Shown here: in pieces, positions 10,987 to 35,107 of the stretch | Layout: every line of letters begins with the position of its first letter | Position numbering within the stretch: position 1 is the stretch's first letter | Origin: Candidatus Aminicenantes bacterium | GTDB taxonomy: Bacteria > Acidobacteriota > Aminicenantia > Aminicenantales > Saccharicenantaceae | Length of the DNA: 64,000 nt | Assembly (NCBI GenBank): GCA_963736255.1 | Contig: CAVTOI010000002.1 | Coordinates: 1,038,486-1,102,485 of the forward strand | Direction of reading: 5' to 3' | Translations under genes and position numbers: made by a program | The notes under the pieces: generated by a model | Told to the model about the DNA's origin: nothing | The model's database searches: none | The model's input: only the letters and a program-made list of their open reading frames with translations

Positions 10987-11100
10987 GGGATCCCTCTCTC
11001 CTCTTATCTTACCATGAAGCGAGGCGGCTCCGAAGCGCCGGGGCGACTCGCCCCTCGCGGAAGGGCCGCTATGGTAGAATGGTTGAGAATGGAGACCGGA

Positions 11101-12345: not shown

Positions 12346-12372
12346 GCGGCCCGGACCACCCCGGCCGCTTCC

Positions 12373-14546: not shown

Positions 14547-14687
14547 GCGGCCTTACTATAAACGGTTTCTCCGGGTCCGGTCAATTCCCCAATTCCTTGA
14601 CATCCCCTTCGTCCCTGCATTAGCATCGGGGCTGCGCCGGACGGCGGAATGCGGCGCCATCAAGACGACAAAGAAGAGGAGGTCCCG

Positions 14688-16253: not shown

Positions 16254-16362
16254 GAATCCGAGGAACGTTTCCGGAGGGAACGGTCCCTGGGTAACAATTG
16301 AACGTCCCCTCCAATTAGGCTAATATAAGCGGGGAATCGACCGCCGAAGAAAGGAACTCGCC

Positions 16363-17223
16363 ATGGCCGAGCCGTTCATCGAAGAAAAAACACGCAAAGT
16401 CGCCTTGCTCATCGACGGCGACAACGCCCAGCCCTCGCTCATCGGGCAGATCCTGACCGAGGCAGGCAAGTACGGCCTCGTGACGATCCGCCGCATCTAC
16501 GGCGACTGGACAACGGTCAATATGTCGGGCTGGAAGAACGCTCTCAACGACAACGCCATCCAGCCCATCCAGCAGTTCCGCTATACCATCGGCAAGAACG
16601 CCACCGACAGCGCCATGATCATCGACGCCATGGACATCCTTCACGGCCACCTGGTCGACGGCTTCTGTATCGTCTCGAGCGACAGCGATTACACCCGCCT
16701 CGCGACCCGGATCCGGGAGATGGGCTTCTTCGTCATGGGGGTCGGCAAGCGCTCGACGCCCAAGGCTTTCGTCAACGGCTGCAACATCTTCATCTATACC
16801 GAGAACCTCGTCCCCCGGGGCAGGGACCGCGAGGCGGGGCGGGAGCCGCGGCGCCGCGAGCGGGGCGGAGCGTCCCACCGCAAGAGCGGCGCCAAGGAGA
16901 CCCGGGAGCAGAAAGTCGAGCGCGAGGAACACGAAGATCGGGAGGACCGCGCCGACGCGGCCGCCAAGTTCGATCCCGTCCCCCTGCTCAAAGGCGCCTT
17001 CGACATGGCCGTCCACGAGGACGGCTGGGCCAATCTCGGCGAGATCGGCTTCTACCTGCGACAGCTCGATCCGGGTTTCGACCCGCGCACCTACGGCTTC
17101 AAGCAGCTGTCCCAGCTCATCAAGAGCCAGACGACCCTCTTCGACGTCCACTCGCGGGGCGAAGAGGGGGGCGGCGCCGCGATCTACATCCGTCTGCGTG
17201 AAAACGCGACCAGCGCCGGATAG
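16363..17223 (+). CDS. NYN (LabA/DUF88) domain protein with C-terminal OST-HTH/LOTUS domain
   Basis: VALLIDGDN, RRIYGDW, GKNATDSAMIIDAMD and SSDSDY motifs; PGFDPRTYGFKQLSQL LOTUS motif. Confidence 0.92.
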   Translation: MAEPFIEEKTRKVALLIDGDNAQPSLIGQILTEAGKYGLVTIRRIYGDWTTVNMSGWKNALNDNAIQPIQQFRYTIGKNATDSAMIIDAMDILHGHLVDGFCIVSSDSDYTRLATRIREMGFFVMGVGKRSTPKAFVNGCNIFIYTENLVPRGRDREAGREPRRRERGGASHRKSGAKETREQKVEREEHEDREDRADAAAKFDPVPLLKGAFDMAVHEDGWANLGEIGFYLRQLDPGFDPRTYGFKQLSQLIKSQTTLFDVHSRGEEGGGAAIYIRLRENATSAG

Positions 17224-17264
17224 CGCCCGGCGCTCGCCCCCTTTCCGTCGCAGGATAAGCTCGC

Positions 17265-17810
17265 CTATCCTCCTCGTTCTTCGCGGAGGACCACGCCGCG
17301 GCCGATAAAGGCGAAGCTGATCAAAACGAGGGCCGCCAGCCAGCCTCCCATCGTGAACGATCGCGGCAACAAAGCGGCCGTTCCGATCCCGCCCAGGACG
17401 AGCAGGCCCGCGAGAGCGCCGAACTGCCCCATGCCGTAGAGAAAAATGAACGGCAGATAATGGGCCCCGACGGTGATCATGGCGGCCGGATAGAACCAGT
17501 TCTCGCGGTAGAGCGTCGCGGCAGCCACGAGCAGGAAGGTGATCGGGACGGTAAAGGCGACCTGCGCGCCCAGCCGCCCCAGAGAATTCTCCGGGCTCAC
17601 CTTGGCTGGGCGGCCGAGCAGGCGAAGGACGATCTGGGTCAGGGGAAACAGAAACATGGAGGCAAGGAAGAGGAAGGCCATCCCCCGACGGTGAGGGCTC
17701 CATGTGCTGATGGCCGCCGAAAGCGCCCAGATCATCCCGGATAGAAGCTGGCCGGCGAATCCGCCCATGAAAGCGGACCGCATCTCGCGCTGCGCGACGG
17801 TGATATGCAT
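17265..17810 (-). CDS. Membrane protein, about 6 TM (DUF7010-like)
   Basis: Hydrophobic; WFYPAAMITVGAHYLPFIFLYG segment. Confidence 0.7.
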   Translation of the reverse strand: MHITVAQREMRSAFMGGFAGQLLSGMIWALSAAISTWSPHRRGMAFLFLASMFLFPLTQIVLRLLGRPAKVSPENSLGRLGAQVAFTVPITFLLVAAATLYRENWFYPAAMITVGAHYLPFIFLYGMGQFGALAGLLVLGGIGTAALLPRSFTMGGWLAALVLISFAFIGRGVVLREERGG

Positions 17811-17817
17811 GCTGGAG

Positions 17818-18072
17818 TTACCTCTTCGCCCCCCGCTTCAAGAAAGCGGTCAGCAGGAATCCGCCGCCGATCGCGAGCATCAGGATCCCCCAGATCAGGT
17901 TGAGGTTGATGCCGAGGGAGATCGCGTACATCTCCTTCTTGGTCGTCAGGCCGTAGACCGTGAGGAGAGCGCCATAGGCGCTGAGGAGCCAGCCGATCGG
18001 GAGCTTGAGGTCGAGGACATGGCCTTGGCTCATGCCCGTTTTCTGTTCCCCGGTTTCGATCTTATCGTTCAT
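17818..18072 (-). CDS. Small 2-TM protein downstream of the symporter
   Basis: LDLKLPIGWL..YG and GINLNLIWG; size and position typical of small membrane proteins that accompany SSS genes. Confidence 0.75.
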   Translation of the reverse strand: MNDKIETGEQKTGMSQGHVLDLKLPIGWLLSAYGALLTVYGLTTKKEMYAISLGINLNLIWGILMLAIGGGFLLTAFLKRGAKR

Positions 18073-18100
18073 GATGCGCTCCTTGGGGTCTCAGGCCCGA

Positions 18101-19720
18101 TCACCAGAAAATGACGTTGAGGATGACGGCCACGATAATGGCCAGCGTCCCCCAGACGGCCGGCCGGGCGTACCAGCGGGCCTCGGCCTTGGGCTTGGCC
18201 GTCAAGCCGAAGACGAGGCCGGCCAGCTCCTTGGGATCCCGCTTGGCGGTGAAAAGGCTGACCGCGATCGTGACGACGAAATCGGCCGACCAGGCCCAGA
18301 TGGCCTGATAGAAATTCGCGGCCATGTCGCTATGGTAGGTGAGGATCCCGGCCCGGTAGAGGATGTAATGTCCGGCCGCGGTCGCTATGCCCACGAGCAG
18401 GCCCCAGAAGCCTCCCCAAGCCGTGGCGCCCTTCCAGAACATGCCCAGCAGGAACGTGGCGAAGAGCGGGGCGTTGAAGAAGGAGAAGATGAGCTGCATG
18501 TAGTCCATCAGGTTCGGGAAGGACTGGACGATGTAGGCGGTCCCGACGCTGATGGCGATGCCGAAGACCGTGGCGTACTTCCCCATCCTCAGGTAGTGGG
18601 CGTCGGGCTTGCCTTTCTTGATGTAGGTGCCGTAGATGTCGTAGGTCCAGATGCAGTTGAATGCGGTGACGTTGCCGGCCATGCCCGACATGAAGCTGGC
18701 CAGGAGGGCCGTTATGGCCAGGCCCAAGAGGCCGTTGGGCAAATAATGCTTCATGAGGAGGATGAGGGCCGAGTTGTAATCGGCCGTGGGGAGGGCGGCC
18801 TGGCCGAACTCGGGCAGAACGAGCAGGGCGACCAGGCCGGGGATGACGACGATGATGGGGACGAGCATCTTCGGGAACGAGGCGATGATGGGAGTCATCC
18901 GGGCCGAGTTGATGTTCTTCGAAGCCAGGGCCCTCTGGACGACGAGGAAGTCGGTCGTCCAATAGCCGAAGGACAGGACGAAGCCGAGGCCCATGACCAC
19001 GCCGAACCAGTCGACGCCGAGAGGGTTGTTGCTGCTGCCCAGATACTTGATCGAGTGGAGGAGGGGCTCCTGGAGCTTGGCCATGAGCCCCTGGAAGCCG
19101 CCCACCTCCTTGAGCCCGAGGAAGACGATCGGCAGGAGGCCGAGCCAGATGAGGAAGAACTGGATGACCTCGTTGTAGATCGAAGAGGACAGGCCGCCCC
19201 AGAAGACATAGAGGAGGACGACGACGGCGGCGAAGAGGATGCTCCCGGTGAGCGACCAGCCGAGCATGAGCTTGAGGAGCAGGGCCATGGCATAGAGACT
19301 GATGCCGCTCATGAGGACCGTCATGATGGCGAAGGAGATGGCGTTGAGGCCTCGGGTCGCCTCGTTGTAGCGGAGCTTGAGGTACTCGGGAACGGTCCGG
19401 ACGCGGCTGCCGTAGTAGAACGGCATCATGAAGACGCCCAGGAAGACCATGGCCGGGATGGCCCCGATCCAGTAGAAATGGACCGTGGCGATGCCGTATT
19501 TGGCCGAGTTGGCCACCATGCCGATGACCTCGAGGGCGCCGAGGTTGGCCGAGAGGAAGGCCAGGCCGGTGATCCAGCCGGGGAGAGAGCGTCCCGAGAG
19601 GAAGAAGTCCTCGCCCGTCTTCATGTACTTCTTGAGCGAGTAGCCAACGAGGATCATGACCGAGATGTAGGCGCCGATGATGAGGTAATCGACGGCGTTC
19701 AGGGTGATGACAGGGGGCAT
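18101..19720 (-). CDS. Sodium:solute symporter (SSS), probably a sugar transporter
   Basis: EDFFLSGRSLP, ANLGALE, PEYLKLRY, YWTTDFLVVQRAL and ASFMSG motifs; promoter-like TTGACA-17-TATGCT upstream. Confidence 0.93.
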   Translation of the reverse strand: MPPVITLNAVDYLIIGAYISVMILVGYSLKKYMKTGEDFFLSGRSLPGWITGLAFLSANLGALEVIGMVANSAKYGIATVHFYWIGAIPAMVFLGVFMMPFYYGSRVRTVPEYLKLRYNEATRGLNAISFAIMTVLMSGISLYAMALLLKLMLGWSLTGSILFAAVVVLLYVFWGGLSSSIYNEVIQFFLIWLGLLPIVFLGLKEVGGFQGLMAKLQEPLLHSIKYLGSSNNPLGVDWFGVVMGLGFVLSFGYWTTDFLVVQRALASKNINSARMTPIIASFPKMLVPIIVVIPGLVALLVLPEFGQAALPTADYNSALILLMKHYLPNGLLGLAITALLASFMSGMAGNVTAFNCIWTYDIYGTYIKKGKPDAHYLRMGKYATVFGIAISVGTAYIVQSFPNLMDYMQLIFSFFNAPLFATFLLGMFWKGATAWGGFWGLLVGIATAAGHYILYRAGILTYHSDMAANFYQAIWAWSADFVVTIAVSLFTAKRDPKELAGLVFGLTAKPKAEARWYARPAVWGTLAIIVAVILNVIFW

Positions 19721-19902
19721 CGCGCTCTCCTTTCGTCAGGGACGACGGGGTCCATTTATTCCGCGAGGGAGCATAGTTCACGCCCCGGGCGATGTCAACG
19801 AAGATTGGGGCATGTTCCTGGAGACTCCGCGACGGAGCGTTTTGGGCGGCGCTGGGCCGCCCCTTGCCCCCGTGCCGTCGCGAGTCCTCTTTGGGGGCGG
19901 GA

Positions 19903-19933
19903 TGGGGACTTGTCCCTCCGGGACGTGTCCCCC
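19903..19933. repeat. Tandem GGGAC-Nn-GTCCC short palindromes (REP-like)
   Basis: GGGGACTTGTCCC followed by GGGACGTGTCCCC in the intergenic region. Confidence 0.5.
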
Positions 19934-19995
19934 CACCGGATTTGTTGTATATTGAGGCCGTCTGATCTCCGAGATGCCCGAAGGGGAAAGAGGCC

Positions 19996-21563
19996 ATGAG
20001 AAGCCGGAGCCGACCGATGACAAGGACTCTTTGGACGGCCGCAGCCGTCGTCATCCTGGCGCTGGCCGGATGTTCGGGAGCTGGTCCGGCGAAGATAGAG
20101 GCGCCCGAGGCCCCGGGGGGGGACAAGTCGCCAGGGTCGGTTCGGATATCTCCCATGGACAGGATCGAAGCCCTCGCGTCCAAGGCTGCGAGCGTCGTTC
20201 CGTCGGAACGGCAGCTCCGCTGGCAGGCGCTCGAGTTTCAGGCCTTCGTCCACTTCGGCATGAACACGTTCACCGACCGGGAGTGGGGCGAGGGAACCGA
20301 GGACCCGAAGCTCTTCGACCCGACTGATTTCGACGCGGACCAGTGGGTCGAGGCGGTCAAGGCCGCCGGCATCCGGGGCCTCATCGTCACGGCCAAGCAC
20401 CACGACGGCTTCTGCCTCTGGCCGAGCGAATTCACCGAGCACTCGGTCAAGAGCTCGCCGTGGAAGGACGGGAAGGGCGACGTCGTCGGAGAGGTCGCCG
20501 CCGCCTGCCGGAAGGGCGGACTCGCGTTCGGCGTCTATCTTTCGCCGTGGGACCGGCACGAGCCGACGCTACGGCGACTCGCCGCGCTACAACGAGCACT
20601 TCAAGAACCAGCTCCGCGAGCTTCTGACCCGGTACGGCGAGATCTCCGAGGTCTGGTTCGACGGCGCCTGCGGCGAAGGGCCGAACGGCAAGCGGCAGGT
20701 CTACGATTGGGCCGGATATTTCGCCCTCATCCGCGAGCTCCAGCCGGGCGCGGTCATCTCCATCATGGGGCCGGACGCCCGCTGGATCGGGAACGAGGCC
20801 GGTGTCACCCGGGAGAGCGAATGGAGCGTCATCCCCGTCGTCGGCTTCGACGACCTGCCCGACGAGAAGAACCCCGGCGGCATCGCCCATCTCGACGCCC
20901 AGGCCAAGGACCTCGGCTCCTCGGAGCGGATCGCCGCAGGTCGCCGATCAGGGCGGGCGGCTCATCTGGTATCCCGGCCAGGTCGACGTCTCCATCCGCC
21001 CCGGCTGGTTCTACCACGCGGCCGAGGATGACAAGGTCAAGACCCTCGACCAGCTCCTCGACATTTATTACACCTCGGTCGGCGGCAACGCGCAACTCCT
21101 CCTCAACATCCCGCCCGACAAGCGCGGCCGCATTCCCGAGAACGACGCCCGGCGGCTCAAGGAGCTCGGTGACAGGCTCCGGGCGACCTTTGCCGAGAAC
21201 CTGGCGGCGGGGACCGAGATGTTGAAAACCTCTTCGCTGAGGGATCGGCTCGACTGGTTCACCTGGGATCTCGGAAGCCCTGTCCGTTTCAACGTCGCTC
21301 AGCTGAAGGAAGACCTGAGGCTCGGCCAGCAAGTCGAGGCCTTCGCGTTCGATGTCTGGGACGGGAAGGATTGGGTCGAGAAAGCCCGCGGCACGACGAT
21401 CGGCTGGAAGAAGCACCTGCGTATTCCGACCGTCGAAACGACCAAGGTCCGGGTCCGCATCCTCCGGGCGAGGGGAGGAGTGGTGTTCATTCGACCGGAT
21501 TCATTCGGGCTCTATCTTGACCCGCTTGGCCTGCCGGTGAAGAAAGACGGGGTCAAACCTTAA
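19996..21563 (+). pseudogene. GH29 alpha-L-fucosidase lipoprotein interrupted by two +1 frameshifts (probably sequencing errors)
   Basis: LAGC lipobox; [32 protein letters not shown]. Shift near 20566-20569 to [23 protein letters not shown]; shift near 20936 to [25 protein letters not shown]. About 521 aa when repaired. Confidence 0.85.
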
Positions 21564-21640
21564 TTCTTATAATCCTGGGCATCCTCAGTCCTTGCCCGTG
21601 GCCGGGCGCACCCGGATTATAAGAATTAAGGTTTGACCCC
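21549..21640. repeat. 92-bp element with perfect 27-bp terminal inverted repeats (MITE/REP-like)
   Basis: GGGGTCAAACCTTAATTCTTATAATCC (21549-21575) and its exact reverse complement (21614-21640), between convergent genes. Confidence 0.9.
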
Positions 21641-21642
21641 TT

Positions 21643-23192
21643 CTAGCGGGAGTTGCTGACGAAGGCGATCCGCTTTGCGTCCGGCGACCACGACGGGACG
21701 TTGATCGTGCCCTGCCCGCCGTAGACATAAGCCATAACCCGTGGCTCCGTCGATCCGTCCGCGGGCATCATCCGAATATAGACTTGCTTATAGAACGGAT
21801 GGTCGTCCGCGGCGACGTCCTTACCGAACGACAGGAAGACGATGCGCCGGCCGTCGGGGGAGATATGAGGGAACCAGTCGTGGAATTCGCCCGAGGTGAC
21901 CGGCTCCTGGCCGGACCCGTCCGGCGCCATCCGCCAGATGCGCATGCTGCCCGTCCGCGCGGAATTAAAGTAAATAAAGCGGCTGTCCGGCGTGTATTCC
22001 GGGCCGTCGTCGAGTCCCTGAGCGTCGGTCAGGCGGATCTCCTGCCCGCCTTCGACCGGGATATTGTAGACATCGTAGTTTCCGGCGCGGCCGCCCGTAT
22101 AGACGAGGAACCGCCCATCCGGCGACCAGCCGTGGAGATAGGACGGCGCCAGCGGCGTGGCCCGCTTCGGAGCCCCGCCCTTCGCCGGGAGGGTGTAGAT
22201 GACCGATTCGTCCTTGTCCCCGGCGCTGTGATGGCTGATGCCTAGCCGTTTCCCGTCGAACGACAGGACGTGGTCGTTGTTATTGGCCGTGGCGAAGCCC
22301 GTATCGAGCTTCGATGTTTTCCCGGTGGCCAGCTCAAAGCGGCAGAGAAGGCCATCAACGTTATAGATGAGGAAGCGTCCGTCCCTCGTCCAGTTCGGCG
22401 CCTGGATGGGCCGGTCCGAGCGGAACACGGCCGTGCGCTTGCCCGTGTCGACGTCCAGCAGCTCGATCATCCCCCCGACGTAATCTTGGTAGGGGACGAA
22501 ATCCTCGGGAGCCGGGACGGTCATGCGGACGTTTGTGAAACTGGCCTTCTCGACGATCTCGGCGTTGTGCGAGCAGACGAAGAGACCGACGCGGACTTCG
22601 TCACCAAGGTCGATGTCTTCGACGCGCTCGCTCACGTACGGCTCGCCGAACTTCGCCGCCGACATGATATAGGTGTTGCCCTTGCGTTCGAGCTGGATCT
22701 GGTCTGCGCCGGAGAGGGGGAGCCGCGTCTCTTCGGTGTCGCCCCCGCTTCCCGCCGGTACTGCAGAGAGGTCAAACCGTCACCGTGGACGACGGCGCTG
22801 GTTTGGGCCGACCCCGTGTCCATGGCCGAGCGGGCCATCCACCCGATCTTGCGATGGGCTTCGATCCCTTGACCGATGAATTCGACCCGGGCGCTGACGA
22901 TGAAATCCCCTTTGATCCGTTTCCACAGGAAGTGGCCCTCGTCGCCGGCGAACCACATGTTGGCCCCGGCACCTTCGATAACGAGCGCCCCGTCCGCGGC
23001 GTCCTCGACGACCGTTCCGGCCTTCAGGACGGGTCCGATGTCGCCGTGTCCTTCGAAGAGGGCCAAGGGATCTTCCAGGGTCGGGGCCGGCGGCGGGGGA
23101 GCCTGCCGGCAGCCCGGGGCGGCGGCGAACAGGGGCACCAGGAGGAGGGCGAACCCCAGGGCTTTCTCTCGGCGGAAAGGGCGTCCGCGCAT
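21643..23192 (-). pseudogene. TolB-like/PD40 beta-propeller lipoprotein with a single frameshift in a homopolymer
   Basis: ORFs 22632-23192 and 21643-22665 join (QYRREAG-GDTEETRL...YIMSAAKF) if one base is added to the C5 run at 22742-22746. Repeats APNWTRDG, HGWSPDG, PHISPDG and PSWSPDA; APGC lipobox. Confidence 0.85.
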
Positions 23193-23228
23193 GGCCGCAT
23201 GATAGTCGTCCGCCCCGGAACGGTCAAG

Positions 23229-23304
23229 GGGGACTTGCTCGGAGGGACAGTCCCACTGACCGGAACACCCGGACCGGGGACACGTACCAAAGGGACAGGC
23301 CCCC
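23229..23304. repeat. Cluster of degenerate GGGAC(A)-GTCCC units (REP-like)
   Basis: GGGGACTTG, GGGACAGTCCC, GGGGACACGTACC and GGGACAGGCCCC within 80 bp between divergent genes. Confidence 0.5.
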
Positions 23305-23407
23305 TCTTCCTGCCCTTTTTCTGAACCGGCGGGCCGGTTTGACGTATAATACCGCGGGAACCCGCGCGCGGGTTCCCCTATCCACGTATCTTTCGAGGGA
23401 GGCCGGC

Positions 23408-24814
23408 ATGCTCCGCGACATCATCAAGAAAGAGATCCTGGACAACATCACCAGCCCGAAATTCGTCTTCACCTTCCTTCTCTGCACCATCCTCATCCTG
23501 CTCTCGGTCTATACCGGGGTGACGAACTACCGGGCCGAGAAGAAGGAGTACACGGCGTCGCTGGCCCTCAACAAGAAGAACATGGAGAATCAGCCGAACT
23601 ACAACTCGCTCGCCGGGATCGGGGTCAAGGTCAGCAAGCCGCCGCAGGTCCTCGGGACCGTCGTCACGGGCATCGAGGAGGCCGTCGGCCGCGTCGCCCC
23701 GGTCAACATCGCCGCCGACCCGAACCTCGTCGAGTCCAAATACAGCAGCAACCCCGTCTTCGCCGTCTTCGGCGCCCTCGATCTCATGTTCATCGTCAAG
23801 ATCGTCCTCAGCCTCTTCGCCATCCTCTTCACCTACGACGCCATCGTCGGCGAGAAGGAGAAGGGGACGCTGAAGCTGGCCCTGTCGAACGACGTCCCCC
23901 GCGACCGGCTCATCCTGGGCAAGGCCATCGGCGGCTACATCAGCCTGCTCCTGCCTCTGCTCATCCCGCTCCTCCTCAGTCTTCTCTTCCTGCTCATCGT
24001 GCCGGACGTCTCGCTCGGCGGCCAGGATTGGGCCCGGCTGATGCTCATCTTCCTCATGTTCTTCCTCTACCTCTCGGTCTTCTTCTGTCTGGGATTGTTC
24101 GTCTCGGCCCGGACCTCGCGCTCGTCGACGAGCTTCCTTGTCCTCCTCTTCGTCTGGGTCATCATCGTCATGGTCATCCCCAAGGCCGCGGTCATCACCG
24201 CCGGCCAGGTCAAGCCGATCCCGTCGGTCCACGAGATCACAGCCAAGAAGGACGCCTTCCTCCAACAGGTCCAGACCGACGGCCAAAAAGGCGCCCGGGA
24301 TTGGATCACCAAGAACCAAGCCGAAGCGACCAAGGATCCCAAGGCCTGGCAAGAGAAGTTCCGCCAGTTCATTCAGGAATATCAACAGGAGCTGACGACG
24401 AAGATCGACGAGAACAACGCCGCACTCGAGCGGGACTACCAGCAGAAGAAGAGGGCCCAGCAGAGCCTGGCCGTCAATCTCTCCCGCATCTCGCCGGCCT
24501 CCGCCCTGACCTTCGGCTCGATGACCCTGGCCCGGACCGGGGTCGACGAGTTCGACCGCTTCCTGGCCTCGGTCCGGACCTACAAGCCCATCTACACCAA
24601 GTGGATCAACTCGAAGCTCGGCGAAAGCATCAACTTCGCGACGGGGGAGCAGACCAAGATCAGCCTCGACAGCATGCCCCAGCACGTCTACGAGCCGGAG
24701 TGGCTCAGCAAATCGCTGGTCCGGGCCATTCCCGACTTCGCCCTGCTGCTCGTGATGATCATCATCTTTTTCGTCGGTGCCTACGTTTCGTTCCTGCACT
24801 ACGACGTCCGTTAA
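23408..24814 (+). CDS. ABC-2-type permease with a large extracytoplasmic domain
   Basis: Start MLRDIIKKE after GGAGG; YDAIVGEKEKGTLKL, ILGK, SRISP and terminal YDVR motifs. Confidence 0.88.
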   Translation: MLRDIIKKEILDNITSPKFVFTFLLCTILILLSVYTGVTNYRAEKKEYTASLALNKKNMENQPNYNSLAGIGVKVSKPPQVLGTVVTGIEEAVGRVAPVNIAADPNLVESKYSSNPVFAVFGALDLMFIVKIVLSLFAILFTYDAIVGEKEKGTLKLALSNDVPRDRLILGKAIGGYISLLLPLLIPLLLSLLFLLIVPDVSLGGQDWARLMLIFLMFFLYLSVFFCLGLFVSARTSRSSTSFLVLLFVWVIIVMVIPKAAVITAGQVKPIPSVHEITAKKDAFLQQVQTDGQKGARDWITKNQAEATKDPKAWQEKFRQFIQEYQQELTTKIDENNAALERDYQQKKRAQQSLAVNLSRISPASALTFGSMTLARTGVDEFDRFLASVRTYKPIYTKWINSKLGESINFATGEQTKISLDSMPQHVYEPEWLSKSLVRAIPDFALLLVMIIIFFVGAYVSFLHYDVR

Positions 24815-24824
24815 GGAGGACCCC

Positions 24825-25568
24825 ATGCTCGAAGCCATCAACCTGACCAAGCGTTACGAGGACGGCGAACTGGCCCTCGACGGACTGAGCTTCAAGGTCG
24901 ATCCGGGCGAGATCTTCTGCATGTTCGGGGCCAACGGCGCCGGCAAGACGACGACCATCAACCTGTTCCTGAATTTCATCCCGCCGACGTCCGGCGAGGC
25001 CCTCGTCGAGGGGATCGACGTGGCCAAGGACCCGCTCAAGGCCAAGCGCCACGTCTCTTTCGTCTCCGAGAACGTCATGCTCTACGGCAACTTCACGGCC
25101 ATCCAGAACCTCGACTATTTCAGTAAGCTGGCCGGCAAGCGGAACCTGACAAAGAAGGACTACGGCGAGGTCCTCGAGCGGGTCGGCCTCCAGAAGGAGG
25201 CCTTCGACCGCCGGATCAAGAACTTCTCCAAGGGCATGCGCCAGAAGCTCGGCATCGCCATCGCCCTGGTCAAGGACGCCGCCAACGTCCTTCTCGACGA
25301 GCCGACCTCGGGCCTCGACCCCCAGTCGGGCCGGGAGTTCCTGGAGATCCTCGTCCAGATGCGCGACAAGGGCAAGTCCGTCTTCATGTCGACCCACGAC
25401 ATCTTCCGGGCCAAGCTCATCGCCGACCGGATCGGCTTCATGCGCAAGGGCAAGCTGGTCATGCTGAAGACGGTCCAGGACCTGGCCCATGAAGACCTGA
25501 CCGACCTCTACATCCAGTACATGGAGGAACAGCCGGTGTCGGCGCCCGCCGCTCCGGCCGGGATGTGA
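24825..25568 (+). CDS. ABC transporter ATP-binding protein
   Basis: AAGGAGG RBS; GANGAGKTT, FSKGMRQ, LLDEPTSGLD and STH motifs. Confidence 0.93.
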   Translation: MLEAINLTKRYEDGELALDGLSFKVDPGEIFCMFGANGAGKTTTINLFLNFIPPTSGEALVEGIDVAKDPLKAKRHVSFVSENVMLYGNFTAIQNLDYFSKLAGKRNLTKKDYGEVLERVGLQKEAFDRRIKNFSKGMRQKLGIAIALVKDAANVLLDEPTSGLDPQSGREFLEILVQMRDKGKSVFMSTHDIFRAKLIADRIGFMRKGKLVMLKTVQDLAHEDLTDLYIQYMEEQPVSAPAAPAGM

Positions 25569-26065
25569 CGCCCAACGAGCCCGTCGGAAGGCCTGGGAGG
25601 ACCGTCGTCCTCGGACTGGGGAACATCCTTCTCGGCGACGAGGGGGTGGGCGTCCATGTCGTGGAAGAGCTGCGGCGCACGGGGGGGCTCCCCGGCGTCG
25701 AGCTCGTCGACGGCGGCACGGCCGGCTTCCAGCTCCTTCCTTACTTCGACGGCGGCGGCCTCGTCGTCATCGTGGACGCGGCGGCCGACGGGCAGCCCGC
25801 CGGCACCGTGGGCCAATCGCGGCCCGTGTTCTCGAAGGATTATCCCCCCGCCTTGACCCCGCACGACGTCGGGCTGAAGAACATTCTGGACGCCCTTGCG
25901 CTGACCGGCACGCGGCCCGATATCATCCTCCTGACCGTTTCGGTCGCCGAGGCGGACCGGGCCTCGCTCGACCTTTCGCCGGCCGTCGGCCGCGCGGTCC
26001 GCGAAGCCGCGGACCGTGTCCGGCGCCTCCTCAGCGGACCTGGGGGAAGCTCGACTTCTCGATGA
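25565..26065 (+). CDS. hyaD: Hydrogenase maturation endopeptidase (HyaD/HybD family)
   Basis: GLGNILLGDEGVG, VDGGT, IVDA and PHDVG motifs; GTG start overlapping the ABC ATPase stop. Confidence 0.88.
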   Translation: MTPNEPVGRPGRTVVLGLGNILLGDEGVGVHVVEELRRTGGLPGVELVDGGTAGFQLLPYFDGGGLVVIVDAAADGQPAGTVGQSRPVFSKDYPPALTPHDVGLKNILDALALTGTRPDIILLTVSVAEADRASLDLSPAVGRAVREAADRVRRLLSGPGGSSTSR

Positions 26066-26729
26066 ACTTCCAGCCTCCGATCATGGAGGAGATCGTCCCC
26101 CGGCCTTCCAGATAGTCGTGGTACCAAGACAGGTAGATGTGCATGGTCGTGAAGGCGACGAACACCCAGGTGAAGATGTGGTGCCACTGCCTCAGGCCGT
26201 CGAGCCCTCCGAAGACCGGGATGAGCCCGGCGAAAAGACGGGGGAACCAAGCCGGGCTCATGACCGAATACAGGGCGAAACCCGTGAGGATCTGAAAGAG
26301 AATGGCCAGGTACATCGTCGAATAGATGATGCCGGCCAGCGCGTTGGCCCCGACCGACAGGACCGGCAGCTTGCAGATCATGAAGATGTCGAGGCAGAGG
26401 ACCTGCAGGACCTCCTTCCGCTTGGCCTTCGTGCGGGGAAAGAAATTCTTCCACCGGGCAAAATCGTTCCCGGCAAAGCCCCAATAAACGCGGCCCAGGA
26501 AGTTGAGCAGGAAGAGGTAGGCGAAAGCGAAATGGACGAACCGGACCGACCCGAAGAGATAGCGGTTCGAGGCCTCGACCGCCGGTCCTCCCCAAGGCGG
26601 GGGGGAGCCCATGATGAGCCCCGTCACGCCGAGCACAAAGACGCACGCGGCGTTGGTCCAGTGGAAGAACCGGAGCGGCAGGTCCCAGACATAAACCTGG
26701 TAATACTCGGCGTGTCCGCTCTTGTCCAT
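26031..26729 (-). CDS. hyaC: Ni/Fe-hydrogenase cytochrome b subunit
   Basis: Start MDKSGH after GGAGG; VYVWDLPLRFFHW, RFVH, RQWHH..HIY heme ligands; SSMIGGWK. Confidence 0.93.
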   Translation of the reverse strand: MDKSGHAEYYQVYVWDLPLRFFHWTNAACVFVLGVTGLIMGSPPPWGGPAVEASNRYLFGSVRFVHFAFAYLFLLNFLGRVYWGFAGNDFARWKNFFPRTKAKRKEVLQVLCLDIFMICKLPVLSVGANALAGIIYSTMYLAILFQILTGFALYSVMSPAWFPRLFAGLIPVFGGLDGLRQWHHIFTWVFVAFTTMHIYLSWYHDYLEGRGTISSMIGGWKFIEKSSFPQVR

Positions 26730-26739
26730 GCGGCCCTCC

Positions 26740-28458
26740 CTATACGACCTGGACCTGATGGAGGCGCTTCCCCTGCGGATCGTAGAGGTGGACGGCGCAG
26801 GCGATGCAGGGGTCGAAGGAATGGATCGTCCGCAGGATCTCCAAAGGCTGGTCGGCGCGGGCGACGGGCGTCCCGACGAGGGCGGCCTCATAGGGGGACC
26901 TCTGTCCGCTCGCGTCCCGCGGCGAGCCGTTCCAGGTCGTCGGCACGACGAGCTGGTAATTCGCGATCTTGCCGTCCTTGATGACGATCCAATGCGACAG
27001 GGCCCCGCGGGGCGCCTCGGTGAAACCGGCGCCCTTGGCCTCCGCCGGCCATGTCCCCGGGTCCCACTTTTCGCCGTTGAACATCCGGGTGTCGCCGTTC
27101 TTGATGTTCGTGACCAGCGTATCGTAGAACTCCTTCATCCATCGGGCGATGAGCTGGGTCTCGATCCCGCGAGCGGCCGTCCGGCCGAGGGTCGAGAAGA
27201 GCGCGGTTACCGGCACGCCGAGGTGGGCCAGAGCGCCGTCCACCGCCTGCTTGATGTCCGGCTGCCCGGCGGCGTAGCCGACGAGCAGCCGGGCCAACGG
27301 GCCGACCTCCATGGCCCGCCCCTTCCAGCGGGGCGTCTTGAGCCACGAGTATTTGCTCTCGACCTCGAGGTTCTTGTAGGGCGGCTTCGGCCCTGTGTAG
27401 GCGAAGTCCGTTTCCCCCTCCCAAGGATGGAGGGCGGCCGCGTCGCCGCCCTTGTAGGCGTACCAGGAATGGGCCACGGACTCCGTGATCTGGCCGGGGT
27501 CGGCCGCGTCGACCTCGTGGACCCGGGTGAGGTCGCGGTCGAGGATGACGCCCCGGGGGAACTTGAACCCCGAGGGATCGCCGATGCCGCGCGTCGGCAG
27601 GTCGCCGTAGCTCAGGTAGTTCGAGACCCCGCCGCCGATCGCGGCCCAATCCTTATAATAAGAAGCCACGGCGAGGAGGTCGGGGATGTAGACCTGGTCG
27701 ACGATCGTCATGGCGTCGTCGATGAGCTTGCCGACGAGGGCCAGGCGCTCGGCGTTGAGCGTCATGGCGTTATCGGGCCCGACCGCGGAGTAGGCGCCCC
27801 CGACGAGGTAGTGCGGATGGGGGTTCTTGCCGCCGAAAATGGCGTGGACCTTGATGATCTCCTTCTGCCACTCGAGGATGTCGAGGTAGTGGGCGACGCC
27901 GAGAAGGTTGACCTCCGGCGGCAGCTTGTAGGCCGGATGGCCCCAATACGCGTTGGCGAAGATGCCCAGCTGGCCGCTCGCCACGAGCGTCCGGATCCTG
28001 TCCTGGACCGTCTTGAAATAGCCCTCCGAATTCTTCGGCCAATCCGAAAGGGACTTGGCGACCGCCGCCGTCTGCGCCGGGTCCGCGCTCAGGGCCGACA
28101 CGACGTCGACCCAATCGAGGGCGTGGAGGACGTAGAAATGGACGACGTGGTCCTGGAGGTAATGGGCGCAGAACATGAGGTTCCGCACGAGTTCCGCGTT
28201 GGGGGGCACGGCGATGCCGAGGGCGTTCTCCACGGTGCGCACCGAGGCCAGGGCGTGGACGGTCGTACAAACGCCGCAGGCCCTCTCGCAGAAGGCCCAG
28301 GCGTCCCTCGGGTCCCGGCCCCGGAGGATGATCTCCAGCCCGCGGACCATGGTCCCCGACGACCAGGCGTCGGTGATCCGCCCGCCGTCGACATCGGCTT
28401 CGATCCTCAGATGCCCCTCGATCCGGGTGATGGGATCGACGACGATCCTCTGGGCCAT
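26740..28458 (-). CDS. hyaB: [NiFe]-hydrogenase large subunit (group 1, uptake type)
   Basis: VDPITRIEGH; L1 ERACGVC; GKNPH; EAPRGAL; L2 SFDPCIACAVH followed by a 15-aa cleavable tail. Confidence 0.96.
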   Translation of the reverse strand: MAQRIVVDPITRIEGHLRIEADVDGGRITDAWSSGTMVRGLEIILRGRDPRDAWAFCERACGVCTTVHALASVRTVENALGIAVPPNAELVRNLMFCAHYLQDHVVHFYVLHALDWVDVVSALSADPAQTAAVAKSLSDWPKNSEGYFKTVQDRIRTLVASGQLGIFANAYWGHPAYKLPPEVNLLGVAHYLDILEWQKEIIKVHAIFGGKNPHPHYLVGGAYSAVGPDNAMTLNAERLALVGKLIDDAMTIVDQVYIPDLLAVASYYKDWAAIGGGVSNYLSYGDLPTRGIGDPSGFKFPRGVILDRDLTRVHEVDAADPGQITESVAHSWYAYKGGDAAALHPWEGETDFAYTGPKPPYKNLEVESKYSWLKTPRWKGRAMEVGPLARLLVGYAAGQPDIKQAVDGALAHLGVPVTALFSTLGRTAARGIETQLIARWMKEFYDTLVTNIKNGDTRMFNGEKWDPGTWPAEAKGAGFTEAPRGALSHWIVIKDGKIANYQLVVPTTWNGSPRDASGQRSPYEAALVGTPVARADQPLEILRTIHSFDPCIACAVHLYDPQGKRLHQVQVV

Positions 28459-29597
28459 CACGCACCTCCTTCTTTCTTTTCCGCCGGCTTTTCGGCCTTG
28501 AGGTCCTTGTCCTTGAGGCTGCTCTCGAGCTCCTTCTTGATCAGGCGCCGCTTGCGGATGTTCGTCGCGATGGCGTGGACGGCGACGCCTCCGCCCGCCG
28601 CCGCGGCGAGATACATCCCCAGCTTGTCCGCCGTCGATTCGACGCCGAAGCCCGGGAACGCCGGCAGGGACCTGGTGAACGGTCCGGCGTCGTAATAGCC
28701 GGCCTCGCTGCACCCGATACAGGGCGCGCCCGATTGGATGGGATAGCTCGTGCTCCCGTTCCAGCGGATGATGCCGCAGGAGTTGTACGTCTGCGGCCCG
28801 CGGCAGCCCATCTTGTAGAGGCAGTAGCCCTTCTTGGCCCCGGCATCGTCGAACGATTCGACGAACAGGCCGGCGTCGTAGTAGGGCCGCCGGTAACAGG
28901 AGTCGTGGATCCTCGTCGAATAGAACGCCTTGGGCCGCCCCTGGGAGTCGAGCTGGGGCAGACGGCCGAAGGCCAGCAGGTGGGCGACGACCCCCGTCAT
29001 GACCTCGGCGATCGGCGGACAGCCCGGGACGTTGACGACGTTGGGCAGGATCTTATGGATCGGCGTCGCCCCGGTCGGATTCGGCGAGGCCGACTGGACG
29101 CAGCCGTTCGACGCGCAGCTGCCCCAAGCCACGACGGCCATCGCTTTCTCGGCCGCTTCGCGCAGGCCGTCGAGGGCGCTCCTGCCTGCGATGGTGCAGT
29201 AGATGCCGCCGTCCTTCATCGGGACCGAGCCTTCGGCCATCAGGATATACTGGCCGGGGAATTTCTTGATCGTTTCCGTCACCGCCGCCTCGGCCTGCTC
29301 GCCTGCCGCAGCCTGGAGCGTTTGCGAATAATCGAGGGAGATCCGGTCGAGAAGAATGTCGGCCACGAGAGGATGCGACGACTTGATGAAGGACTCGCTG
29401 CAGCAGGTGCACTCTTGGAAATGGAACCACAGGACGGGCGGCCGGGGCTTGGTGTCCATGGCCTTGATGAGGGCCCTGGCCTGGCCGGCCTCGAGGCCGA
29501 GGGCAGCGGAAAGATAGCCGCAGAACTTCAGGAAATCGCGTCTTGAATGACCTCGCGACTGCGCGATCTCCCAGAGGCTTGGGGGTTTCTCTGTCAT
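28458..29597 (-). CDS. hyaA: [NiFe]-hydrogenase small subunit, Tat-exported, with six-Cys proximal cluster motif
   Basis: Start MTEKPP after GAAGGAGG; SRRDFLK; ECTCCSES, GSCASNGC, PGCPP, IHDSCYRR, CLYKMGC and CIGC; C-terminal membrane anchor. Confidence 0.96.
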   Translation of the reverse strand: MTEKPPSLWEIAQSRGHSRRDFLKFCGYLSAALGLEAGQARALIKAMDTKPRPPVLWFHFQECTCCSESFIKSSHPLVADILLDRISLDYSQTLQAAAGEQAEAAVTETIKKFPGQYILMAEGSVPMKDGGIYCTIAGRSALDGLREAAEKAMAVVAWGSCASNGCVQSASPNPTGATPIHKILPNVVNVPGCPPIAEVMTGVVAHLLAFGRLPQLDSQGRPKAFYSTRIHDSCYRRPYYDAGLFVESFDDAGAKKGYCLYKMGCRGPQTYNSCGIIRWNGSTSYPIQSGAPCIGCSEAGYYDAGPFTRSLPAFPGFGVESTADKLGMYLAAAAGGGVAVHAIATNIRKRRLIKKELESSLKDKDLKAEKPAEKKEGGA

Positions 29598-29644
29598 GGT
29601 CCCTCCTTCGAGACGAGAAAAGACCGTCGTTTGCCCAGTTCTTC

Positions 29645-29660
29645 TACAAGAATCGTGCCA
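29645..29660 (-). promoter_or_regulatory. sigma54-like -24/-12 promoter for hyaABC
   Basis: Minus strand TGGCACGATTCTTGTA versus consensus TGGCACG-N4-TTGCW; -12 GC is replaced by GT; 47 bp upstream of the start codon. Confidence 0.55.
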
Positions 29661-29843
29661 CGCGGCCGGGGGGCCTCCGGGGGGAGCTCCTGAGGGGAAG
29701 CCGAGCCCCTGAAGCGTCCTTGTCCGGGCCATGTCCCGTTCACCGGGATATTTTCCTGCCCGGCCGGATGTCAGGCGCCGCTTGCCCGGCGCGAACCCGA
29801 TCACCTCTTGGGGGGAGGCCCTGTTTCCCGATCCCTGAGGCCT

Positions 29844-32971: not shown

Positions 32972-35107
32972 CTAGAGCTTCTCGACGGCCGCTGCCGCGG
33001 AAAAGCCTGTGGGGCGGACGACCTCGACAACGACCTTCCCCGAGTCAGGGCCCATCGGTCCGAGGGGCGTCTCCAAAACCGTCCCCGGCGCGAGGTCGGG
33101 GAGAGACACGTCTTTGCGCTCGAGCGGGATGCCGCCTTTCCCGTAAGCGGTCCATCGAAGCCGGTAGCCTCTGAGCGTGTAGGCGGGCAGATCGTGCCGC
33201 GTCCGGATGACGGCGATGAGGGCCCGGCCGTCCGTCCTGATCCCGAGGGATCCGATCGGGCTCGACTCCGACCGAAGCACGTCGAAAGAAGGCTTGCGGA
33301 CGCCGAGGACGTCGACCACGCCGTGGACCCTTTGCCTGAGGACACCGATGCCTTTGTCTCCGATGTGAGTCCTGTAGTCGTTGTAGTCGAAGAAGATGGT
33401 CCCTCCGACCCATGGATAGTCCCGGAAGACCGCGTTGTGGGACCTAAGGATTTCCGCCCGGCGGACGTCGTCCTCGGGCCGGTCGGCGGTGCAGGCGCAG
33501 TAGCCGTATTCGGAGATGACGATGGGCTTGTCGGGAAAGGCCCGGTTGACGGCCTCGAGGTTCCGCCGCATCGTCGCGGGGTCGCCGCCGAACCAGGTCT
33601 CGTAGTATTCGTTCCACTCGACGAAATCCATCTCTCCGGCGACATCGCGCTCGGGCGATGTCTGAAGTGAATTCGAAGCATAAGAGCAGAGCCGGCCCGG
33701 GTCGAGGAGCTTGGCCTCACGGAGCATCCGCCGGACGAAATCCTGCGCCACCGGGTTTTGGCCGTCGACCTCGTTGCAGAGGCCCCAGGAGAAAACGCAA
33801 GGGTGGTTGCGTTCGCGGGCGATCATCTCACGGAGCTGTTCGAGCCCGTTCGTGGTGAGCGCATCGAGCTGGCCCCCTTCGAGCTTGAGGAAGGTCCCGG
33901 GGCCCCATGTGGGCACCTCGACCTGGATGAGGATCCCCTTTCGATCGCAGTAGTCCATGACACGTCTGTCCTGCTGCCAATGGACACGGGTGAAGACGCA
34001 GTTGAGCTCCTTGAGGTCGTCGTGGTCGTGCTCGATCCAGGAGCCCGGCTCGGCCATGCCGAAATCGGGATGGCTGCCGGCCATGCGCTCGACGCCGGCC
34101 AGGCGGACGGGCTCGCCGTTGAGCAGGATCTCTGTGCCCCGGACCTCTATCTTACGGATGCCGAAGGTCGTGGACAGGCGATGCAGGACCCTGCCCTTTT
34201 CGGATATCGAGGTTTCCAGGATGTACAGGTCGGGGTGATCGAAGTGCCAAAGCCGGGCATCGTGCAGCATGATCTCCGGCAGGGCGACCTCGCGCGTCGT
34301 CTCCGCCGGGATCTCCGCTGCCAGGGCGGATGCATCTTCCCGGGCGACACGGCCGCTCCTTTCATCGATGACGCTGCATCCGAGGTCGAGCTTGGCCGGC
34401 CTGCTCGTGGAATTTCGGATGAGGACCTTGACGGCCAGGGAGGCCGCGGTCCCGGCCAGGTCAGGCACGGCATCGACCCAGATGCATTCGAGGTAGACGG
34501 GGGACGTCACGATCAGGCGCGCCGGCCGTGTTATCCCGCCGTCCGGAGTCCAATCGTAGGAGTTGTCCCTCGGCAGCATGGTGGTGGTGAAGGAGTTATC
34601 GACCCGGACAACGACCGTGTTGTGCCGGCCGTATTCGAGGCCGGCTGTGATGTCGATGGCAAATGCCGTGTAGCCTTTGCCGATATGTCCGCCGACTCCC
34701 TTGCCGTTGACGAAAACCTCGGCCGTATGAAAGACGGCTTCGAATTCGATACGGACGACCTTGCCCTTCCAGGTTTGCGGCGCTTCGAACGTGCGCCTGT
34801 ACCAGGATGCGCCCATGTAGCCGGCGGTCTTTTCAGAGACCTGCCAGGTGGACGGGACGACGGTCTCCTCCCAGCCTGCCGTCGAAGCACCGGCCGCGAA
34901 CCAGGCTTCGACTTCGCCGCGGTTGTCGGGGTCGGTCCGGAAGAGCCACGGTCCGTCAAGGGATACCTCGAGATGCGAGCCTACTGAGAGTGTTACGTCA
35001 TGAGGACGGCCGGCCGGACCTCCGTCGCAGGCCGTCCCGGCGGCCGCTGCCCCCGCGGCCGCTTGGACCGCTCCCGTCAGGAATTTCCTTCGCGTCCAAC
35101 GCTCCAT
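32972..35107 (-). CDS. Tat-exported GH2 glycoside hydrolase (beta-glucuronidase/galactosidase-like)
   Basis: TRRKFL; FEAV..VNG, GGITRP, FGIR, RERNHPCVFSWGLCNE (acid/base) and ISEYG (nucleophile). Confidence 0.9.
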   Translation of the reverse strand: MERWTRRKFLTGAVQAAAGAAAAGTACDGGPAGRPHDVTLSVGSHLEVSLDGPWLFRTDPDNRGEVEAWFAAGASTAGWEETVVPSTWQVSEKTAGYMGASWYRRTFEAPQTWKGKVVRIEFEAVFHTAEVFVNGKGVGGHIGKGYTAFAIDITAGLEYGRHNTVVVRVDNSFTTTMLPRDNSYDWTPDGGITRPARLIVTSPVYLECIWVDAVPDLAGTAASLAVKVLIRNSTSRPAKLDLGCSVIDERSGRVAREDASALAAEIPAETTREVALPEIMLHDARLWHFDHPDLYILETSISEKGRVLHRLSTTFGIRKIEVRGTEILLNGEPVRLAGVERMAGSHPDFGMAEPGSWIEHDHDDLKELNCVFTRVHWQQDRRVMDYCDRKGILIQVEVPTWGPGTFLKLEGGQLDALTTNGLEQLREMIARERNHPCVFSWGLCNEVDGQNPVAQDFVRRMLREAKLLDPGRLCSYASNSLQTSPERDVAGEMDFVEWNEYYETWFGGDPATMRRNLEAVNRAFPDKPIVISEYGYCACTADRPEDDVRRAEILRSHNAVFRDYPWVGGTIFFDYNDYRTHIGDKGIGVLRQRVHGVVDVLGVRKPSFDVLRSESSPIGSLGIRTDGRALIAVIRTRHDLPAYTLRGYRLRWTAYGKGGIPLERKDVSLPDLAPGTVLETPLGPMGPDSGKVVVEVVRPTGFSAAAAVEKL

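Follow-up and report, generated by a model that had tools for sequence, protein, structure and literature searches.

A predicted membrane-bound uptake [NiFe]-hydrogenase with a six-cysteine proximal cluster in an Aminicenantes genome

Aminicenantia is an abundant class of sediments and aquifers; none of its members is in culture, and models usually treat it as fermentative. What would a bacterium of this class do with a hydrogenase of the oxygen-tolerant type? The question is raised by hyaABC, a [NiFe]-hydrogenase operon in a 64,000-nucleotide stretch of a Candidatus Aminicenantes bacterium genome (the window; contig CAVTOI010000002.1, positions 1,038,486 to 1,102,485). An original prediction, made from the letters of the window, had read the operon as an oxygen-tolerant enzyme in a probable fermenter. 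Our analysis puts at roughly 0.7 the probability that hyaABC encodes an intact uptake [NiFe]-hydrogenase that is exported by the twin-arginine translocation (Tat) pathway, anchored in the membrane and linked to quinone, that belongs to the six-Cys "oxygen-tolerant" type of HydDB group 1d, and whose electrons leave the quinone pool through cytochrome bd or anaerobic reductases. The genes and the cassette that they form are as follows.

28458-29597, minus strand: hyaA, [NiFe]-hydrogenase small subunit, 379 amino acids (TIGR00391, 457 bits; PF01058 and PF14720 match)

26740-28458, minus strand: hyaB, [NiFe]-hydrogenase large subunit, 572 amino acids (PF00374, 774 bits)

26031-26729, minus strand: hyaC, b-type cytochrome membrane subunit, 232 amino acids (TIGR02125, 144.9 bits against a cut-off of 121.5; PF01292 matches)

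25565-26065, plus strand: HyaD/HybD-type maturation endopeptidase, 166 amino acids (TIGR00072, 113 bits against a cut-off of 47.45; PF01750 matches)

25570-29732, no strand assigned: four-gene hydrogenase cassette (protease, hyaC, hyaB, hyaA and the region upstream of hyaA), absent in the genus-mate G186

The hydrogenase genes occupy exactly the span first assigned to them, 26031-29597, where they are packed tightly on the minus strand in the order hyaA-hyaB-hyaC; the hyaB ATG and the hyaA TGA overlap by one base. Does the small subunit have the ligands of an oxygen-tolerant enzyme? We aligned HyaA by using MAFFT in 87 rows (the window, 78 sequences from related loci and 8 references) and again in 96 rows, with 9 sequences added to the 87, and numbered positions after mature E. 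coli HyaA. In both alignments the window protein has cysteines at positions 17, 19, 20, 115, 120 and 149 (Cys63, 65, 66, 161 and 166 of the precursor, plus the equivalent of 149). The motifs ECTCCSES and GSCASNGC, from which the extra cysteines had been predicted, are both there, and these cysteines do align with Cys19 and Cys120. The Glu76 equivalent is also present, the distal-cluster ligands are His187, Cys190, Cys215 and Cys221, and the medial-cluster ligands are Cys230, Cys249 and Cys252. Read in order (Cys17, Cys19, Cys20, Glu76, Cys115, Cys120, Cys149, His187, Cys190, Cys215, Cys221, Cys230, Cys249, Cys252), the 14-position pattern of the window protein, CCCECCCHCCCCCC, matches that of E. 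coli HyaA exactly in both alignments. As judged from these residues, the small subunit carries all ligands for a six-cysteine proximal, a three-cysteine medial and a His/Cys3 distal cluster.

The ends of the protein are those of an exported, anchored subunit. A Tat signal, SRRDFLKF, lies near the N terminus, and the mature end is predicted near residue 47, which pairs with residue 1 of Ralstonia eutropha HoxK (3rgw_S). The C terminus has a hydrophobic anchor followed by a Lys/Glu-rich tail. This tail (window 28458-28560; RKRRLIKKELESSLKDKDLKAEKPAEKKEGGA) has about 30 residues after the anchor and is presumably longer than the short tails of HoxK and of E. coli HyaA. Both hydrogenase subunits were also scored against solved structures, to some of which the window proteins are more than 50% identical; the best match of HyaA is HoxK (422 bits), followed by E. 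coli Hyd-1 (379 bits) and Allochromatium vinosum (322 bits).

In the large subunit, E. coli E28, E73, C76, C79, D118, H229, P508, R509, D574, C576, C579 and H582 all have conserved counterparts, and the protein is 49 to 57% identical to the E. coli, Rhizobium and Cupriavidus necator large subunits. Its L1 motif is ERACGVCTTVH (Cys61, Cys64), and its L2 motif is DPCIACAVH (Cys551, Cys554, His557), after which come 15 residues that the maturation protease would cut off. The departure of these motifs from those of E. coli Hyd-1, noted at the outset, is real: the E. coli large subunit has VERICGVCTGVH and DPCLACSTH. The Glu that had been pointed out before L1 is the equivalent of Glu73, and it splits the aligned six-Cys enzymes (E. 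coli Hyd-1, C. necator and the window) from the four-Cys ones, which have Gln; the exception is a six-Cys Parabacteroides enzyme with Gly. The histidine of GKNPH (His229), which had been offered as a further mark, is present but does not serve as a six-Cys signature, because the aligned four-Cys enzymes (E. coli Hyd-2, Isp-type, Alteromonas and Flavobacteriales) carry it too. The cytochrome b gene expected after hyaB proved to be of the HyaC type, above the TIGR02125 cut-off, and His23, His66, His183 and His197 of its product do not vary among six HyaC/HupC/HoxZ-type proteins, in keeping with a pair of bis-His haems. HyaC is presumed to be the quinone-reducing anchor.

On the basis of these ligands, the following route can be proposed. 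H2 would be split on the periplasmic side, and its electrons would pass through the three iron-sulfur clusters and the HyaC haems to the membrane quinone pool. With Cys19 and Cys120 in place, the proximal cluster could release two electrons; O2 attacking the active site would then be reduced to water, and the enzyme could keep working in traces of O2. The quinol would be re-oxidised by cytochrome bd oxidase under micro-oxic conditions and by a DmsAB-type reductase or multihaem cytochromes under anoxic ones. In this way, where oxic and anoxic zones of sediment or soil meet, the cell might recapture H2 released by itself or by neighbouring cells.

To which enzymes is the window hydrogenase related? 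Close relatives in the protein database are very numerous; the best 120 of 8000 scored are 73 to 94% identical, and the few with names come from Aminicenantales, Acidobacteriota, Calditrichia and Krumholzibacteria. Searching species-representative genomes yielded 80 related loci. In an 89-row large-subunit tree, the window falls inside a 70-row clade (support 99), and the small subunits of this clade comprise 67 with the full six-Cys pattern, 1 partial, 1 cut by a contig end and 1 with four cysteines (L019). The enzyme thus sits in a six-Cys clade, not in an oxygen-sensitive one, the placement that would have spoken against the original prediction. The metagenome-assembled genomes (MAGs) in the clade are labelled Aminicenantes, Acidobacteriota, Vicinamibacterales, Bacteroidales, Ignavibacteria, Kryptoniota, Calditrichota, Rhodothermales, Verrucomicrobia/Opitutaceae and Anaeromyxobacter. 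A more careful large-subunit tree of 62 rows recovers a 43-row clade around the window (100/100), which adds Parabacteroides distasonis and a Lewinellaceae MAG, both six-Cys, and a four-Cys Bacteroidales/Flavobacteriales branch. In the same tree Alteromonas and five Aminicenantia enzymes come together as an Isp-type group (98/96), and E. coli, Rhizobium and C. necator as canonical 1d (100/100). The group 1e stand-ins in our trees are the Alteromonas plasmid HynSL, which we take to be of the Thiocapsa/Allochromatium type, and the Aminicenantia Isp-type loci; A. vinosum was compared by its PDB scores, and the trees were built without Geobacter references.

Within and near this clade, several enzymes have naturally reverted to four cysteines. 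L019, from a Bacteroides-labelled MAG, has Gly at both 19 and 120, and its sister L020 is six-Cys. A Bacteroidales/Lutibacter/Flavobacteriales branch (L013, L014, L015 and L025) has lost both cysteines and has Gln for Glu73; its large-subunit tail is longer, ending ...GGACTI or similar. Throughout the 96 rows, Cys19 and Cys120 are lost only jointly, never singly, which fits selection on them as a pair. In a neighbouring clade, L026, L028 and L047 (Desulfuromonadaceae, Trichlorobacter and Caldilineales) have Asp or Asn at the Cys20 position, in the patterns C-G-D, C-A-D and C-G-N, so that one ligand of their proximal cluster may not be a cysteine.

The clade already has a place in the literature. 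In the accessible part of the HydDB paper, the enzymes of Kryptonium thompsoni and Phaeodactylibacter xiamenensis are group 1d, with Kryptonia marked in its table as untested (PMC5037454). The available text of a further paper gives Parabacteroides as HydDB group 1d and says that H2 metabolism in Parabacteroides remains to be investigated (PMC12578642). Since Kryptonia, Phaeodactylibacter and Parabacteroides are called 1d and these taxa are found in the window clade, the clade appears to be what the field already files under 1d, by the taxon of the published calls and not by their sequence. Because both the kind of enzyme and its clade are thus filed as 1d in other uncultured or anaerobic lineages, the Aminicenantes occurrence extends a known pattern: it is a new host for a known kind of enzyme, not an anomaly. 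As far as their available text goes, the publications that we searched contain no assignment of group 1d to Aminicenantes, and supplementary genome-survey tables may already list the enzyme. Two papers, in the portions available, describe Aminicenantes as putative fermenters, one of them noting Dms-like genes.

We then asked how the enzyme is distributed in its class. A group-1 large subunit passes E <= 1e-100 in 43 of the 201 Aminicenantia genomes sampled, and we sorted these 43 by identity to the window HyaB. Seven (G000, G157, G181, G191, G129, G015 and G033) are at least 68% identical, 21 are 57 to 62% identical and 15 are 41 to 47% identical. In the first set, the six-Cys pattern and HyaC were confirmed in G181, G191 and G015 besides the window, and the other three were placed by identity. 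From the 57-62% set we fetched the loci of five genomes (G085, G095, G072, G125 and G043; loci L104, L105, L109, L113 and L112). All five have a small-subunit gene 1.8 to 2.3 kb upstream of the large-subunit gene, none gave a HyaC match, and four of the five small subunits, those that were aligned, have Gly at 19 and 120. In G085 two genes lie in between; one encodes a 225-amino-acid membrane-protein candidate that matches no Pfam family, the other an HdrD-like CCG/4Fe-4S protein. This is the Isp arrangement. The commoner group-1 hydrogenase of the class (21/201) therefore looks Isp-type and four-Cys, the set as a whole being so assigned by identity alone. The genus-mate G095 carries this Isp-like type. 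In the 57-62% set the large-subunit tail after L2 ends ...TGFN.VVR.

The presence of the six-Cys enzyme varies even within a genus. The genus-mate G186, which has no group-1 match, is collinear with window positions 10604-25569 and resumes at 29733 after 3 bases, so that it lacks exactly the protease, hyaC, hyaB, hyaA and the region upstream of hyaA; G203 and G205 carry the cassette. The 4.2-kb cassette is a presence/absence polymorphism within the genus, an accessory and not a core trait of Aminicenantia. No direct repeats are evident at its junctions in the empty-site alignment with G186, and gain cannot be told from loss in that comparison. Close to the hydrogenase there is one more small difference in gene content: the Aminicenantes contigs L009 and L010, elsewhere collinear with the window, lack its glycoside hydrolase family 2 gene (window 32972-35107).

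The protease gene has a layout of its own. It is convergent with hyaC, the 3' ends overlapping by 35 bases, and at its other end the GTG start codon shares bases with the stop codon of an ABC-transporter ATPase gene; the convergent layout recurs in the class-mate G181. Over window 23339-26065, an ABC-2 permease and ATPase pair, and not the hydrogenase genes, appears to share a transcript with the protease gene. In the genus-mate without the cassette, the ATPase gene stops at the same position.

Is the operon, then, a recently acquired or decaying passenger without function in its host? Its absence from a genus-mate, its presence in only 7 of 201 class genomes, and the failure to find HyaE, HyaF or a quinone pathway in the host would fit such a view. 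However, none of the three reading frames is interrupted, no metal ligand is missing, the GC content of the hydrogenase region matches its surroundings, and the cassette is kept at 84 to 87% DNA identity in syntenic relatives. The maturation genes are present as well: a domain scan of the window proteins found no hyp genes there, and the same genome has hypA and hypB (C2:221608-222607), hypC, hypD and hypE (C3:1841329-1843645) and hypF (C3:630908-633160), which completes the hypA-F set. Parts of all three genes are also matched, at 90 to 99% likeness, by contigs of two metatranscriptome libraries, X15 and X18, which belong to two studies (for example, a 168-base piece with one mismatch at 27762-27929). 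These contigs come from relatives, since no sequencing run shares half or more of the words sampled from the stretch (best 0.35), so that their depth and the bins they leave uncovered are uninformative; they are a weak hint that hyaABC may be expressed. A functionless passenger is the most improbable of the explanations that we considered.

What could take up the electrons in this host? That it is an Aminicenantes relative, on which the original prediction had made its surprise depend, is borne out: over ~13 kb the window is collinear, at 78 to 88% DNA identity, with named Aminicenantes MAGs (contigs of Candidatus Aminicenantes bacterium RBG_16_66_30 and Candidatus Aminicenantales bacterium). 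The surprise itself is not. Subunit I of cytochrome bd (cydA; 511.7 bits) is encoded at C2:1024960-1026243, ~38 kb from the operon, and the region G000:C2:832075-834316 (L007:807-3048) encodes subunit I of a divergent haem-copper oxidase (PF00115, 185 bits; only 107 bits to CtaD), preceded by a gene for a COX2-like cupredoxin protein. The C-terminal stretch of this COX2-like protein, as read, has Ser where the CuA-binding cysteines are expected. The divergent oxidase may be a quinol oxidase or a nitric-oxide-reductase-like enzyme. Both DmsA (TIGR02166, 902 bits against a cut-off of 777.7) and DmsB (233 bits against 214.1) are found, together with a formate dehydrogenase alpha subunit, NuoD of complex I and a NuoG-like protein below its cut-off. 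Fourteen open reading frames (ORFs) in the genome, one of them inside the window, have at least four CxxCH motifs. The one in the window (61140-62513) is a multihaem cytochrome c with 8 CxxCH and matches to cytochrome c7/c3 and MtrC/MtrF-like domains. Some 310 kb downstream, at G000:C2:1413816-1426152, lies a cluster of six multihaem cytochrome ORFs with 4 to 17 CxxCH each. The window gene and this cluster point to a possible capacity for metal or extracellular electron transfer. With cytochrome bd, DmsAB, complex I and 14 multihaem cytochromes, "fermenter" does not describe this host.

This kit is also open to another reading, in which respiration is anaerobic only: H2 electrons would go to S- or N-oxides through DmsAB, or to metals or nitrite through the multihaem cytochromes, and the six-Cys cluster would be an inherited fit to a higher-potential chain and not to O2. 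DmsA and DmsB above their cut-offs and the 14 multihaem ORFs with their six-gene cluster speak for it. Thermoanaerobaculum aquaticum, which we take to be a strict anaerobe, offers a parallel. Its strain MP-01 is given as HydDB group 1d in the available part of PMC5900883, and the accessible text of PMC4486115 includes anaerobes in the six-Cys group and discusses a "redox up-shift" for it. Nevertheless, the host has both cytochrome bd and a haem-copper oxidase homologue, and a strong CydA match (~500 bits or more) occurs in 4 of the 7 six-Cys holders compared with 2 of the 21 Isp-like holders. In genus g12, CydA is found in only one of four genomes, G191, the sole six-Cys holder. These relatives are non-independent samples, and because of the kinship among the genomes the co-occurrence is a pattern and not a test. 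Nor are the two roles exclusive, since the HydDB definition of 1d, in the part of PMC5037454 available, covers "oxygen-tolerant anaerobic respiration." We consider an exclusively anaerobic role unlikely.

Cytochrome bd is commonly an O2 scavenger in anaerobes, and the cell might oxidise H2 chiefly to remove O2 or reactive oxygen species, which would shield the anaerobic metabolism of the cell without conserving energy. The host does have enzymes of O2-sensitive types to shield, a group 3c-like [NiFe] hydrogenase adjoining hypAB and an [FeFe]-hydrogenase-like gene. In known systems, though, the route from HyaC through quinone to cytochrome bd is electrogenic, so that protection and energy conservation would coincide. 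HydDB has an "oxygen-protecting" group, 1f, according to the portion of PMC5037454 at hand, and the sequences compared here included none labelled 1f. Pure protection strikes us as highly unlikely, and an uptake enzyme that feeds the quinone pool, with quinol re-oxidised by cytochrome bd or anaerobic reductases, as the best explanation.

Several observations weigh against this explanation. We infer oxygen tolerance, catalytic direction and electron acceptor alike from sequence. HyaB scores higher against the four-Cys A. vinosum enzyme (3myr_B, 801.7 bits) than against any solved six-Cys enzyme (Salmonella Hyd-5, 724; E. coli Hyd-1, 661; R. eutropha membrane-bound hydrogenase, 606), so that the structure scores of the two subunits point opposite ways, HoxK being best for HyaA. 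Likewise, the large-subunit tree joins the Isp-type group to the window clade and leaves canonical 1d outside, weakly (88/75). Of the seven six-Cys holders, three, which are 84%, 86% and 94% complete, are without a strong CydA match, and this also speaks for a solely anaerobic role. The RNA-library contigs may stem from contaminating DNA. Homologues of HyaE/HoxO/HupG and HyaF/HoxQ/HupH, accessories that are typical of canonical 1d operons without strictly defining them, were not found in the 93%-complete genome (PF07449, PF04809 and tblastn). By tblastn with E. coli, Rhizobium, C. necator and Alteromonas queries, neither type was detected in the loci of 91 relatives, covered with flanks of up to 6 kb, 83 of which have HyaC and HyaD homologues; these helpers are small and divergent, and tblastn could miss them. 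Finally, a menaquinone pathway was not found in the same genome: of the futalosine route, neither MqnA/D nor MqnC was detected, and for the classical route tblastn with E. coli queries gave no MenB/C/D/F/H, which leaves the quinone required by the proposed route unaccounted for.

Can these conflicts be reconciled with a quinone-linked 1d-type enzyme? For the trees, an approximately unbiased test does not reject the grouping of canonical 1d with the window clade (p = 0.213), and the small-subunit tree unites canonical 1d, the window clade and three four-Cys Bacteroidales/Flavobacteriales rows (100/99), with the Isp-type group outside. A chimera of a 1d small subunit and a 1e large subunit was considered and rejected: both trees recover the same 40- to 43-row clade around the window, and their conflict is confined to one weakly supported deeper branch. 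As for quinone, the claim of H2 oxidation coupled through quinone to a high-potential acceptor stands in part. Acceptors were found (cytochrome bd, the haem-copper oxidase and DmsAB), and de novo quinone synthesis was not. A MenA-like prenyltransferase match at C2:411449-412195 (97.3 bits, just under the cut-off of 102.15) falls in ORF L101:1369-2586, and complex I, cytochrome bd, DmsAB and HyaC, all systems that need quinone, are nonetheless present in the genome. Quinone might possibly be obtained by precursor salvage or by an undescribed route.

A broader proposal can be made, tentatively, since we find it somewhat doubtful as a joint claim. The six-Cys enzymes of Aminicenantes, Acidobacteriota, the Fibrobacteres-Chlorobi-Bacteroidetes phyla and Verrucomicrobiota could be a lineage of their own and not an offshoot of proteobacterial 1d. 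Their large subunit would share its latest ancestor with 1e, the [4Fe-3S] cluster would be older than the split of 1d and 1e, the paired cysteines would have been lost repeatedly, and assembly would proceed without HyaE and HyaF; in Aminicenantia the enzyme would travel as a 4.2-kb cassette that tracks cytochrome bd. If this were true, the [4Fe-3S] cluster would have been lost in the Isp-type enzymes, in the Flavobacteriales/Bacteroidales branch and in single genomes such as L019, and carriage of the cassette would single out those members of a "fermentative" class that are able to respire H2 when O2 is present in traces.

These data refine the picture of Aminicenantia: some members appear equipped for quinone-linked H2 oxidation of the oxygen-tolerant type together with cytochrome bd, and most of the hydrogenase-bearing relatives carry an Isp-like enzyme instead. 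Knowledge of how six-Cys enzymes work is unchanged by the finding. A six-Cys clade in which HyaE and HyaF were not detected, with its natural four-Cys reversions, offers ready comparisons for the role of the extra cysteines.

How does the window enzyme compare with known systems? The Isp-type (1e) HynSL of A. vinosum (PDB 3MYR) has the same L2 motif as the window, DPCIACAVH, and is the best solved match of the large subunit, and the Isp-type and window clades are neighbouring lineages in both subunit trees. However, the aligned Isp-like enzymes have Gly at 19 and 120 and Gln for Glu73 where the window has Cys, Cys and Glu. The Isp-type gene arrangement is also not found in the window, in which hyaA and hyaB overlap with no isp1 or isp2 between them and the proximal cluster is of the six-Cys type. 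With the canonical 1d systems (E. coli HyaABC, C. necator HoxKGZ, Rhizobium HupSLC and Salmonella Hyd-5), the window shares the gene order small subunit, large subunit and cytochrome b, the Tat signal and C-terminal anchor of the small subunit, the same 14 iron-sulfur ligand positions, including Cys19, Cys120 and Glu76, and Glu73 before L1. It differs from them in its protease gene, which is on the opposite strand, and in its large-subunit motifs, which are ERICGVCTG.H and DPCLACSTH in E. coli, Rhizobium and C. necator. For the taxa that HydDB places in 1d, which is a classification by database, the published Kryptonia, Parabacteroides and Thermoanaerobaculum accessions lie outside our alignment, and their likeness to the window is one of taxon, not of sequence. 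The representatives of such taxa in our trees, a Kryptoniota MAG, a Lewinellaceae MAG and the plasmid enzyme of Parabacteroides distasonis, are all six-Cys and fall in the same supported clade as the window.

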